Shown: one piece after another, positions 33,374 to 35,744 of the stretch
Position numbering within the stretch: position 1 is the stretch's first letter
Layout: every line of letters begins with the position of its first letter
Notes under the pieces: generated by a model
Database searches by the model: none
Told to the model about the DNA's origin: nothing
The model's input: the letters and a program-made list of their open reading frames with translations, nothing else
Origin: a virus
Virus record (IMG/VR): IMGVR_UViG_3300048850_000068
Coordinates: 53,558 to 117,557 of that record
DNA length: 64,000 bases
Direction: 5' to 3' (one strand)
Translations under genes and position numbers: made by a program

Positions 33374-34024
33374 ATGTTCAACACTGCTACTGAGTTCAAG
33401 TCTGCTATGCTCTCTGCTATCTCTTCGCGCTTCATGTATGAAGCAAAGAAAGCAAGCGCTGAGCATAACGTCGAAGTCACTGAAGAGAACTTCAGAGACG
33501 TTCTCAAGACGAATAACTCTTCAATGTTCGACACGCTTAAAGCTATCGAAGACAGCGCTAAGCATGACGTTATTAGCAACATCATGTTTCTTGCTAACTG
33601 CGATGCTGAACGCATCAATCGCAGCGAACGCTCTAACGCACGTTACAACGTCTATGCGTATGAGAAAGATATCAACATCGCTCGCTGTGCTGCTTCAGTC
33701 GAGAGACTCAATCACTACACGAAAGCAATTCTTCAGACTGCGAAGAAATTCGCTGAGCAAGAGACTGAATTGCTACTCACTCACGACGATGCACAAAGCG
33801 CTTGTTCGCTGAGTGTGAAGACTAGCGATAGCAAGCGCGAACGTCTCATCGTCAAGTATCAGAAGCATGTGAGCGCGAAGACTGCTAGCACACAGTCTAG
33901 CTCTTCGATCAACGCTCTTCAAAGCTTCAATGTCTTGATTGAGACGCGCGACGCAAGCAACAAAGTCGCTTATAAACTCAACATGAACAACGATCTAACG
34001 CAGCGCTTGCTTGAGCGCTGCTAA
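33374..34024 (+). CDS. Gly/Pro/Trp-free protein, paralogue of 34860-35744; probable C-terminal winged helix
   Basis: INRSERSNARYNVYAYEK and VSAKTASTQSSSSINAL align with the neighbour; no G, P or W. Confidence 0.85.
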   Translation: MFNTATEFKSAMLSAISSRFMYEAKKASAEHNVEVTEENFRDVLKTNNSSMFDTLKAIEDSAKHDVISNIMFLANCDAERINRSERSNARYNVYAYEKDINIARCAASVERLNHYTKAILQTAKKFAEQETELLLTHDDAQSACSLSVKTSDSKRERLIVKYQKHVSAKTASTQSSSSINALQSFNVLIETRDASNKVAYKLNMNNDLTQRLLERC

Positions 34025-34035
34025 GCAACACTAAC

Positions 34036-34063
34036 GAGAGACGCGAGCAATCGCGTCTCTTTA
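34036..34063 (+). terminator. Hairpin terminator/attenuator (GG/CC-free)
   Basis: AGAGACGCGA-gcaa-TCGCGTCTCT-TT. Confidence 0.65.
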
Positions 34064-34099
34064 CTCAAAACAACAAAGCGAACACAAGAAAGCTTAACA

Positions 34100-34291
34100 A
34101 TGTCAAAGACATTCAAAGATATGCGCGAGCTGAGCGCAGCGAAAGCGAAGAAGTTAGCGAAGACGCGCAAAGCAAAGCGCGATGTGCTCAACATGCTCTC
34201 GAAAGCATACGACACTAGCTCGCAAGTCTTCGAGTTCTTCGAAGAGAACGAATACTCACTCACGCGTGACGATGTGAAGGCGCTAGTCTAA
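34100..34291 (+). CDS. Small Gly/Pro/Trp-free protein, basic N-half
   Basis: 63-aa ORF; GG-less purine-rich leader AAGAAAG. Confidence 0.65.
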   Translation: MSKTFKDMRELSAAKAKKLAKTRKAKRDVLNMLSKAYDTSSQVFEFFEENEYSLTRDDVKALV

Positions 34292-34458
34292 TGATCTACG
34301 ATGCAATCGACTTCACTCGCACGAACTTCGCAGCGCTGCTTGTCATCTTCGCAATGATATGCGCGCTATGTCTCACAGCAGTTACAATGTTGCGAGACTA
34401 TCTCGACGCGACGCGCTACAGAGTGCGCGCACGACGCATGCGACGCTATCGCTACTGA
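34291..34458 (+). CDS. 55-aa single-TM protein with Arg-rich tail (not in ORF track)
   Basis: MIYDAIDFTRTNFAALLVIFAMICALCLTAVTMLRDYLDATRYRVRARRMRRYRY; TAATG overlap with upstream ORF. Confidence 0.6.
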   Translation: MIYDAIDFTRTNFAALLVIFAMICALCLTAVTMLRDYLDATRYRVRARRMRRYRY

Positions 34459-34463
34459 GTTAC

Positions 34464-34497
34464 AAAGCGCGACGCTATACAGTGTCGCGCTTTTTTA
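34464..34497 (+). terminator. Intrinsic terminator closing the island operon
   Basis: AAAGCGCGACGCT-atac-AGTGTCGCGC-TTTTTT. Confidence 0.8.
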
Positions 34498-34523
34498 TTG
34501 CGTTACGTTTGCAACGTTATATT

Positions 34524-34675
34524 GCCTGTGGCAGGAATGCCATGTGGCAGCGGAGCCATGTGGCTTTGGGACCATGTGGCCCGGAAGTGACGTGGCATTC
34601 CTACCATGTGGCTTTTCCGCCATGTGGCGGGCCGACCACGTGGCTGGAATACCATATGGCGGAAATACCACGCAA
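34524..34675. repeat. Tandem array, 16-bp period, core CCAYRTGG
   Basis: Cores at 34524, 34540, 34556, 34572, 34588, 34604, 34620, 34636, 34652, 34668. Confidence 0.9.
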
Positions 34676-34859
34676 CGATATCACACCACGCGCCATGGAG
34701 CGCCCGAACTATAGGTGTAGGAGCAGTGCTCCTACACCGGGTCCCACGGACAATGCCGTTCCTACTACCGGTGCAGCCCAGCCGTTCCTCGGAAATCCAT
34801 GGTATTGCAACGGGCACGAAAAAGGAGGGGCGCCGCTCCCCTCCTCTCTCGTCCGTGCC

Positions 34860-35744
34860 TTACGCCGCGAGCAGCTTATCCTCCAAGAAGCGTGCGATAG
34901 GGGCGTCGGTGACGTGGAACACTGGGTTCTTCTTCGAGCCCGTCGCGAAGACGACCCCGAGGGTTTCGAGCGCCTGCATGGTGGAGCTCGCTTGTGTGGG
35001 CGCAGTCGAGGCGCTGACCGTGTGCGAGACCAGGTGCTTCCGGAGAGCAGGCTCGATGCGGACCTTGTCGCTTGCTGCTGCCTTCGCGACTTCCATCGAG
35101 AAGTCGAGGCCCGCGTTCTTGAAGCGGAAGAGGGAGCGCATGCACGCCTGGTTGATGGCGTTCGAGATCGTGCCGTCCGTCACCCCGTAGATCACGTCGG
35201 CGAGCTTGCCCAGCGCGTAGACGTTGTAGCGGCTACCGGTGTTCTCCTCGCGATTGATGAAGTCCGGAGAGACGTTGGTCACGAGGAACACACGGGCGGC
35301 GCGTTTGGTGACGAGCTGCGAGCGGACCTTCTTCAAGGTGCGCTGGATGTTCTCGTTGTCGGGGTTCTTCTGGGCCTCGAAGCCGGCGCGCTGGTCGACC
35401 GCGGCAGCGATGGTGCACACCATGTTGTCGGCGTCTTCGTCGCTCACCGCAGCGCACAGCTCTTGGAAGGTGAGTTCGGCGGGGCTCTCTTCGATGAGCT
35501 CCTCGGATGCACCCTCGGTGGCCTCGAGGATGTGGACCGCGGCCTCGAGCTCCTGGACCGTCGCCTGGCCGGCATCGACCGGGGTCTCGGTCTCGAGGGC
35601 TTCGAGCAGCTCCGCGACAGTGCCCTCGGTCACGGTGATGTTGGCGAGTTGCACGTCGATGGGCGGCAGTTCCACGGCCGGCGTCTCGACTTTCTTGGAA
35701 GAGCGAGCGCGGCGGGCAGTCTTGGAAGCGTTCTGAGCAGTCAT
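34860..35744 (-). CDS. Hypothetical protein, acidic N-half, probable C-terminal winged helix
   Basis: GGAGA RBS before ATG 35744; terminator at 34819-34846; paralogue of 33374-34024. Confidence 0.8.
   Translation of the reverse strand: MTAQNASKTARRARSSKKVETPAVELPPIDVQLANITVTEGTVAELLEALETETPVDAGQATVQELEAAVHILEATEGASEELIEESPAELTFQELCAAVSDEDADNMVCTIAAAVDQRAGFEAQKNPDNENIQRTLKKVRSQLVTKRAARVFLVTNVSPDFINREENTGSRYNVYALGKLADVIYGVTDGTISNAINQACMRSLFRFKNAGLDFSMEVAKAAASDKVRIEPALRKHLVSHTVSASTAPTQASSTMQALETLGVVFATGSKKNPVFHVTDAPIARFLEDKLLAA

Follow-up and report, generated by a model that had tools for sequence, protein, structure and literature searches.

A glycine-, proline- and tryptophan-free paralogue encoded in a GG/CC-free island of a soil phage-plasmid

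Avoidance of restriction sites, of the protospacer adjacent motifs read by CRISPR systems (CC for type I-F, NGG for Cas9) or of MazF sites follows a single principle: a short word is removed, so that the enzyme reading the sequence finds no target. In phage T5 this concerns the first DNA to enter the cell: T5 resists restriction-modification systems of types I to III, CRISPR-Cas systems of types I and II and Ssp if its first-step-transfer DNA lacks their sites (PMC10644984). The locus considered here resembles these cases, but the missing word has only two bases, its removal is total along one transcription unit, and the alphabet of a protein has been reshaped by it. The locus lies in a window of 64,000 nucleotides, positions 53,558 to 117,557 of IMG/VR record IMGVR_UViG_3300048850_000068, a single virus contig of 117,557 bp (61% G+C) from a soil metagenome assembly. 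This window, the whole stretch that was analysed and to which coordinates refer unless a relative is named, is part of a siphophage phage-plasmid of about 117 kb from soil Hyphomicrobiales, in the group of RHEph10, B1VFA and pLM21S1. An island in it, devoid of CC and with one GG, encodes P0001, a protein of 216 amino acids without glycine, proline or tryptophan (G/P/W), which is a recoded paralogue of P0002, the product of the neighbouring gene (Table 1).

The likeness to T5 and BF23 goes beyond missing sites. Here too we have siphophages of about 120 kb with a fixed direct terminal repeat (3,605 bp in B1VFA), and a short segment, terminal if the placement discussed below is correct, that would carry its own early transcription unit and is followed by a repeat-rich non-coding zone. 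Sites for a host nuclease defence that reads GG/CC would likewise be missing from the island, with CC 0 and GG 1 in its 1,618 bp. The differences are as telling. T5 lacks particular sites, whereas the present DNA has lost an entire dinucleotide, and its protein three amino acids with it; the segment measures about 1 to 1.6 kb against about 10 kb; its sole conserved gene is a recoded copy of a neighbour; and the present elements are temperate plasmid prophages. A full-text literature search, judged by its listings and the first lines of abstracts, found no description of a GG/CC-free phage region or of a natural protein free of glycine and proline.

A recoded paralogue in a GG/CC-free island

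From its own base counts (355 G and 415 C among 1,618 bases) the island is expected to hold some 78 GG and 106 CC, about 184 steps in total. The single GG found is at 34279. In the rest of the genome the longest gap free of both steps measures 87 bp, and the other 1-kb bins of the window contain 93 to 186 of them each. The boundaries of the island are sharp, and its leader, its intergenic parts and the terminator-like hairpin at its end (GG 0, CC 0) are as clean as its genes. The five G/P/W-free frames found among the 676 stop-to-stop frames of at least 80 amino acids in the 117,557-bp genome all lie in the island, the next lowest frame having 4.8%. Other steps made of G and C are enriched, with observed to expected ratios of 1.87 for GC and 1.63 for CG. 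Most four-base palindromes stay near expectation (GCGC 33 against 29, CGCG 24 against 25, GATC 6 against 7), with AGCT, TGCA and GTAC each about two standard deviations low, and six-base palindromes without GG or CC are mildly depleted (29 against 43.9 ± 7.1, again about two standard deviations). General site avoidance is a minor layer at most, because GCGC, CGCG and GATC are not depleted, and restriction-site avoidance as the sole cause was dropped on the same ground.

A sequence-only reading of this locus had noticed that the island protein lacks G/P/W. Its composition bears this out: P0001 is written with exactly 17 amino acids, and at the frequency of the three missing residues in the normal family (8.1% together) their absence from 216 positions has a probability of about 1e-8. 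The start of the gene could also be placed at 33350 (TTG) or 33359 (ATG), while the open frame of P0002 extends to 35789 (TTG). The same reading had aligned P0001 by eye with the product of the convergent gene; both stretches that it quoted lie within a BLASTP alignment of 52.8 bits (E 7e-13, 25% identity over 185 columns). Comparison of the profiles of the two families, with 52 sequences each, is stronger still, with a probability of 99.9 and an E value of 9.7e-34 over 194 columns. Judged from these alignments, P0001 is a true paralogue of the adjacent gene.

Structure prediction is in keeping with this kinship. The AlphaFold2 model of P0001 has a predicted local distance difference test score (pLDDT) of 96.7 and a predicted template modelling score of 0.90; that of P0002 has a pLDDT of 87.1, every block of ten residues from residue 91 onwards reaching at least 82. 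Save for one extra helix in P0001, secondary-structure elements follow each other in the same order in both models, and both end in the winged-helix domain that had been proposed from the letters of the sequence. In P0001 this domain (residues 112-216) matches 6pco_A (Z 8.7, root-mean-square deviation 1.9 Å, 72 aligned residues), and in P0002 (residues 186-294) it matches 2qvo_A (Z 9.5, 3.4 Å, 83 aligned). The two lists of structural matches share several PDB entries, with winged-helix chains on top. A helix followed by a beta-hairpin wing is modelled at 168-184, 188-192 and 198-202 in P0001, and at 245-261, 265-269 and 274-278 in P0002. The winged-helix assignment of the predicted domains is nevertheless of moderate confidence, because Z values of 8 to 9 lie in a range that the comparison tool calls common. 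The helical N-terminal part, some 105 residues, had no match of its own, but the C-terminal domain filled the match lists.

Known winged helices of the MarR, ArsR-SmtB and PadR types, and the orphan AF1382 (PDB 2qvo), thus resemble the C-terminal 100 residues or so of both paralogues, which differ from them in having no Pfam, NCBIfam or PDB sequence match. No family was above cut-off for either protein in Pfam, PHROG or NCBIfam, and none of the MarR, PadR or ArsR type appeared in Pfam at E ≤1 or in NCBIfam at E ≤0.01. Against PDB sequences (E ≤1), the normal-family profile gave only chance matches to cytochrome b562 fusions. Foldseek, run with the P0001 model, returned nothing from the PDB at E ≤0.001 and two uncharacterised viral proteins only from BFVD. 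Prediction of a complex between P0001 and residues 100-294 of P0002 scored 0.00, with no control runs, and weighs neither way.

The recoded protein is not an isolated curiosity. A word-based search collected 64 island-type proteins, 46 of them without G/P/W and all 64 without tryptophan, and 256 normal-type proteins, the 120 listed ones averaging 4.1% glycine and 3.7% proline. An exhaustive profile search gave 396 representative clusters at E ≤0.001; 298 collected proteins were classed by the higher-scoring profile, 295 of them with a matched stretch of at least 120 amino acids. In these stretches 74 of 116 island-type proteins are free of G/P/W, 99 have at most three such residues and 17 have four to 15, tryptophan being absent throughout, while 173 of 179 normal-type proteins have at least eight. 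In a tree of 72 rows (38 island-type and 34 normal-type) one branch divides the types, with a Shimodaira-Hasegawa-like approximate likelihood ratio support of 99. The two classes expected by the sequence-only reading are therefore found, and neither outcome that it had named as refuting (no significant profile or structural similarity, or G/P/W routinely present in homologues of the island protein) came about. Branches are longer in the island clade, and the very long branch of the normal-type row of RHEph10 is probably due to crude trimming. As read from this tree, there was a single old duplication of a gene for a winged-helix DNA-binding protein, before the whole group diverged.

Both types are neighbours in 28 of 41 sources by tblastn, several of these sources being duplicate copies of one contig. 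In seven loci (L002, L015, L016, L017, L018, L027 and L032) the island-type gene has diverged so far that tblastn does not see it, and it was recovered by reading open reading frames (ORFs) with the island profile (E 4e-11 to 9e-24). GG/CC-free stretches accompany the P0002 homologue in B1VFA (851 bp), V1VFA-S (1,279 bp), RHEph10 (549 and 424 bp), a Methylobacterium plasmid (1,531 bp) and more relatives alike, and the ORFs within them match the island profile with E values of 4e-11 to 2e-32. As a side observation, DNA free of GG and CC is open in many frames. In RHEph10 (L017, JX483881.1) the deposited gp148, 226 amino acids on the plus strand at 14797-15501, matches no profile of the family, and a minus-strand ORF at 14887-15501 (204 amino acids, one glycine, no proline or tryptophan) matches with E 4e-12; the annotation is probably on the wrong strand.

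Nucleotides as the level of constraint

The sequence-only reading held that selection for GG/CC-free DNA had pushed a folded protein onto a 17-letter alphabet. Four observations support this view, in which the constraint acts on nucleotides and the DNA drove the protein, not the reverse. The purge extends to non-coding parts, to codon junctions and to unrelated cargo genes. In the 1,279-bp island of V1VFA-S an extra gene, V1VFAS_038 (L041 13934-14191), codes for 85 amino acids, also without G/P/W. A tRNA-level or codon-level cause was dropped, since GG and CC are missing from non-coding DNA and out of frame as well. Lineages where the rule has been relaxed provide the next two observations. 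The island gene of L012 holds 17 GG/CC while its protein has kept zero G/P/W, and in L033 and L014 proline has come back, within the NVDP and NPEN motifs, at positions where the normal family has proline. L033 has 29 GG/CC in its island gene, and L014 as many as 66, yet the L014 protein contains just two glycines and one proline. These lineages sit at three separate places inside the island clade of the tree. In all, relaxation follows an order: GG/CC returns at synonymous sites first, then proline returns where the normal copy has it.

The last observation is that the substitutes themselves are conserved. At 12 columns where the normal family has glycine or proline, the island family has fixed replacements, for example proline to alanine (44 of 52), glycine to asparagine (39) and proline to serine (39). 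All 52 island sequences have arginine at position 192, facing glycine 269, which is itself invariant in the normal family. In the recoded protein glycine gave way to asparagine, glutamate, glutamine, arginine or aspartate, and proline to alanine or serine; the replacements named earlier (glycine by asparagine or glutamate, proline by serine) are all among these.

Site arrays, the terminal repeat and readings of the island

P0002 stands between arrays of a short palindrome. Exact CCAYRTGG sites number 11 in the window for 3.4 expected, seven of them within 34540-34659, in an array to which Tandem Repeats Finder assigns a period of 16; and 10 of the 20 CCATGG sites of the window fall within 34693-36990, flanking the gene. 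CCATGG likewise clusters around the P0002 homologue in seven of the 10 relatives' loci examined, and the clustering is absent in B1VFA and L032. In L015 (IMGVR_UViG_3300017649_000001, 8500-14100) about ten copies of GCACATGC / TGCACATGCA take the place of CCATGG near the normal paralogue; the core CAYRTG is kept in this repeat and its flanks have neither CC nor GG. From this arrangement of sites, the arrays are probably binding sites of P0002. An initiator gene flanked by arrays of its own sites is a familiar arrangement, as in P1 repA with incC and incA. P0002 shares with array-flanked initiator and partition genes the position between arrays on both sides, but it is probably not the RepC-type initiator, nor is it the gene directly following ParA, because the RepC-type replication protein is annotated as a separate gene in B1VFA and V1VFA-S and because the ParA gene, with a ribbon-helix-helix-like gene (matches below the Pfam cut-off), lies at 31474-32420, just upstream of the island. 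P0002 has no match to the Rep, ParB and StbA families of Pfam and NCBIfam. A search of the genome itself with PF03428 (RepC) gave no match, and control genomes were equally silent, which makes it uninformative.

Where the island lies in the packaged molecule may be approached through its relatives. B1VFA has fixed ends with a direct terminal repeat of 3,605 bp, and the repeat of V1VFA-S, known from coverage, is 3,939 bp, that is 334 bp longer (PMC12509600). B1VFA was mapped base by base onto V1VFA-S (89.6% of positions mapped), and the length of the image of each 3,605-bp window was recorded. Among 97,544 testable starts only those at 39639-39809, with ends at 43243-43413, reproduce the published difference to within 5 bp, the value being 335; a second placement, with starts at 62588-65875 inside virion genes, yields 317 to 327. 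The best placement takes in the P0002 homologue with some of the non-coding DNA upstream of it, two small ORFs and the island. In B1VFA the outer edge of the island lies at 43,259, and its gene points inward. The extra G/P/W-free gene in the island of V1VFA-S accounts for the 334 bp. With the placement that fits best, the terminal repeats of B1VFA and V1VFA-S would have the island at their outer end, and, by homology and shared gene order, the repeat of the present genome would begin near 32.75-32.9 kb and finish near 36.3-36.5 kb. If this is right, the geometry equals that of T5.

GG/CC-free DNA together with a protein predicted to fold well implies that something reads the GG/CC step. The explanation that we favour, to which we give about an even chance of being correct as a whole, is that the island is a terminal start-up unit with a recoded array-binding protein, evading an activity that recognises GG/CC. 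An ancestral winged-helix gene was duplicated, P0002 keeping the ordinary writing between CCATGG and CCAYRTGG arrays, while selection keeps the self-contained transcription unit of P0001 free of GG/CC on both strands. Such a ban excludes the codons GGN, CCN and TGG, so that the protein was rebuilt from 17 amino acids with its fold retained. Placed at the outer end of the direct terminal repeat, the island would be the first DNA to enter the cell and the first to be transcribed, as is the first-step-transfer DNA of T5. An activity recognising GG/CC on double-stranded DNA, perhaps a nuclease-type defence of the host, perhaps one of the phage's own functions, would be present at entry, and the unit would have to offer it no target. 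P0001 would then supply the array-binding protein at start-up, when P0002 and the remainder of the genome cannot yet be used. The sequence-only reading had suggested that the island copy may act first and the normal copy later, and the probable place of the island at the outer end of the repeat in two cultured relatives lends this suggestion indirect support. Of the whole account, paralogy, recoding, conservation and a constraint on nucleotides are shown, whereas the terminal place in this genome, the order of action, the binding of the arrays and what the reader is are inferred.

Several points weigh against this explanation. The terminal position depends on two published lengths, that of V1VFA-S obtained by coverage only; PhageTerm was inconclusive for this phage (PMC12509600), and the placement inside virion genes misses the published difference by just 7 to 17 bp. 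In the genome studied here the terminal place of the island is suggested by homology. The three island ORFs match no named PHROG (E ≤0.1) and no Pfam family above cut-off, and they are not recognisable as the pre-early proteins A1, A2 or dmp of T5. General avoidance of restriction sites does not account for the purge of one dinucleotide where GCGC and CGCG abound, and our searches found no reader of GG/CC. The rule is relaxed in L014, L033, L012 and P0193, where the unit is therefore workable without it. A soil metatranscriptome of a different study contains contigs with exactly the sequence of 33977-34251, in the island, and of 37345-37505, and nothing else within 29000-39000 is matched by them. 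As they carry no information on strand or level and may be DNA carry-over, they are a weak hint that the island unit and a small gene at 37324-37698 are among the parts transcribed in nature; they also fit expression in the plasmid (lysogenic) state and not at entry only.

Among the alternatives, start-up on marked DNA seems unlikely. Here the phage itself would mark its packaged DNA at GG/CC-containing sites, the mark would hinder transcription or binding, and only the clean unit, expressible at once, would supply the first array-binding protein. This would account for a whole transcription unit being clean, on both strands, and a conserved cluster beside the packaging genes might be relevant, with a ParB_N protein (26984-27655), an ABC-type ATPase (24843-25478), a transglutaminase-like protease and a PNKP-type phosphatase, as might a 593-amino-acid DUF4942 protein (40186-41967). 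But in L014, where the island is fully relaxed, the ParB protein, orf230, an ABC ATPase with 83% identity, orf88 and orf322 are still present. The ParB/ABC cluster alone does not impose the rule and is therefore a weaker suspect, although it could still be involved if the relaxation of L014 is recent or if a partner gene lies elsewhere. No GNAT domain was seen among the 10 cluster ORFs scanned (E ≤0.01), the relative pLM21S1 yielded no DNA methyltransferase gene (PMC5537653), and modified bases in these phages are without support. We hold as still less likely a constraint on RNA, the messenger having to be GG/CC-free, whether to evade an endoribonuclease, for instance, or to allow translation that needs no Shine-Dalgarno pairing. 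To be sure, a ribosome-binding site of the AGGAGG type is impossible in the island, and its sole GG, in AAGG, precedes the start of the last ORF by 12 nucleotides. Furthermore, exceptions to the rule in relatives are biased on the sense strand, with 81 CC for 17 GG. Against this stands the fact that GG and CC are both purged, when removal of one would be enough for a reader of single strands, and that some 275 bp upstream of the candidate promoter are clean too. The excess of CC, 30 of the 81 being in GCCG, ACCG or TCCG, would be expected from the return of preferred C-ending codons, and the strand-specific reader that it might have revealed was dropped for that reason.

Protection of the phage against its own weapon is very unlikely in our judgement, even though it would explain why the purge is absolute, is local and affects both strands: a nuclease made by the phage to degrade host DNA would cut at GG/CC-containing sites at a time when no more than the first DNA segment has entered the cell. 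Chloroviruses have frequent-cutting nickases that read two or three bases, such as Nt.CviPII at CCD. T5 destroys host DNA at the first-step stage, and how it spares its own is described as unclear (PMC10644984). Destruction of host DNA at entry fits poorly, however, with the life of these elements as plasmid prophages (PMC4447125). Moreover, the winged-helix protein is the only conserved gene of the island, where no nuclease family was found in Pfam, PHROG or NCBIfam. Already disfavoured, and barely credible by now, are the readings in which the DNA pattern is a by-product, either of selection for a protein without G/P/W or of mutation that erased the step locally, for instance through a CC-specific deaminase. 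The lower G+C content of the island compared with its genome speaks for them. Yet the purge is just as thorough in non-coding DNA, at codon junctions and in unrelated cargo genes, and relaxed lineages gain synonymous GG/CC with a protein still free of G/P/W. The replacement of glycine by asparagine, glutamate or arginine is not the simple product of C-to-T changes, and it is conserved, as R192 facing G269 illustrates; CG and GC steps are enriched, and the boundaries are sharp.

Whatever the reader of GG/CC may be, the pair amounts to a natural reduced-alphabet experiment, in which one fold has been held for a long time with and without glycine, proline and tryptophan. Rules of substitution can be read from it directly (glycine in turns to asparagine, aspartate, glutamate or arginine, proline to alanine or serine), and lineages exist that are part of the way back. 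A total local purge of a dinucleotide implies a reader of GG/CC in the conflict between phage and host or in the start-up of the phage, an idea that the cultured phages B1VFA, V1VFA-S and RHEph10 make directly testable. Returning to the start-up unit that we favour, a terminal position, if true, would extend the first-segment logic of T5 to temperate phage-plasmids of soil alphaproteobacteria. A broader proposal, more doubtful than this explanation, is that infection by an entire group of temperate siphophages starts from a terminal 'ignition' unit of about 1 kb without GG/CC, that a recogniser of bare GG/CC on duplex DNA acts in the first minutes, and that a second copy of the protein in 17 amino acids is kept so that array-binding protein is available by then. 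If so, we would have both a long-lived natural protein with a reduced alphabet and a handle on the GG/CC reader.

Other features of the locus and of the element

Features of the locus are collected in Table 1. A consensus promoter scan of 32600-36000 produced no site of the sigma-70 type, and an Rfam scan of 32000-37500 gave sub-threshold chance matches only. The 63-amino-acid ORF belongs to no family of Pfam, PHROG or NCBIfam and has no tblastn match in any relative locus examined.

Table 1. Coordinates of features in and around the island (window positions)
Feature	Position	Strand	Remarks
Inferred direct terminal repeat	~32750..36480		By homology with B1VFA and V1VFA-S and shared gene order; approximate bounds
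GG/CC-free island	32907..34524		1,618 bp, 47.6% G+C in a 61% G+C genome
Candidate promoter	33182..33210	+	TTGACA, 17 nt with inverted repeat, TAGTTT; read by eye
Island gene P0001, 216 amino acids	33374..34024	+	Predicted helical N-terminal half, then C-terminal winged helix (residues 112-216)
Hairpin just past the P0001 stop	34037..34060	+	Called on the minus strand by the scan; plus-strand T tail weak
Island ORF, 63 amino acids	34100..34291	+	Not conserved in relatives
Island ORF, 55 amino acids	34291..34458	+	Hydrophobic N-terminal half; not conserved in relatives
Intrinsic-terminator-like hairpin	34464..34493	+	13 pairs, then T run; ends the island transcription unit
CCAYRTGG palindrome array	34524..34675		16-bp steps; starts at the island edge
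Normal paralogue P0002, 294 amino acids	34860..35744	-	Acidic low-confidence N-terminal part of ~90 amino acids, then shared core of ~200
CCATGG site cluster	35880..36250		In the 1.2-kb non-coding region upstream of P0002

Several genes at some distance deserve mention. The transglutaminase-like cysteine protease (PF06035, E 1e-49) is encoded at 24017-24580 on the minus strand; L005, L012 and L014 do not have it at this place. Its gene (BTLCP) and that of the PNKP-type HAD phosphatase (23547-24029, minus strand) were dropped as correlates of the island, as L005 and L012 have neither between the ABC ATPase and orf322; the island gene of L005 is GG/CC-free although both are missing there. An RtcB RNA ligase is encoded at 53593-54954 (minus strand), and the annotation of B1VFA likewise includes an RNA 2',3'-PO4:5'-OH ligase. 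Ligase and phosphatase together suggest repair of RNA or tRNA, perhaps against host anticodon nucleases. In the 593-amino-acid protein, encoded on the minus strand, the DUF4942 domain is recognised with E 2.9e-44; the protein has no PDB sequence match, and papers dealing with DUF4942 appear, from their titles and abstracts, to be unrelated. In B1VFA and V1VFA-S a sigma-70-family sigma factor and a DNA polymerase III alpha subunit are annotated (L043 48760-49404, B1VFA_132; L046 29869-30513, V1VFAS_109), and the phage may therefore redirect the host RNA polymerase later in infection.

The family of the element was delineated by tblastn with the normal paralogue, which found six plasmids of about 116 to 119 kb (from Methylobacterium, Shinella, Rhizobium, Sinorhizobium, with pLM21S1, and Pararhizobium) and 10 records of cultured Rhizobium phages, including RHEph10, B1VFA, V1VFA-S and RHph_X66. 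Such relatives have been termed plasmid-like prophages or phage-plasmids (PMC12509600, PMC4447125 and PMC5537653). The gene order near the island, with ParA, a helicase, two ParB-like genes and an ABC-type ATPase, is common to them. At the nucleotide level, megablast of 32700-36300 against plasmids and phages found no match. The contig ends of relatives have no break point in common near the island. Finally, the ends of the contig carry their own repeats: bases 1-127 repeat 113967-114093, and the last 118 bases (117440-117557) repeat 122-239. We interpret the pattern as a circular molecule of about 117,318 bp combined with an assembly path from a variant that lacks about 3.35 kb, corresponding to window positions ~60531-63882 and to two large ORFs.

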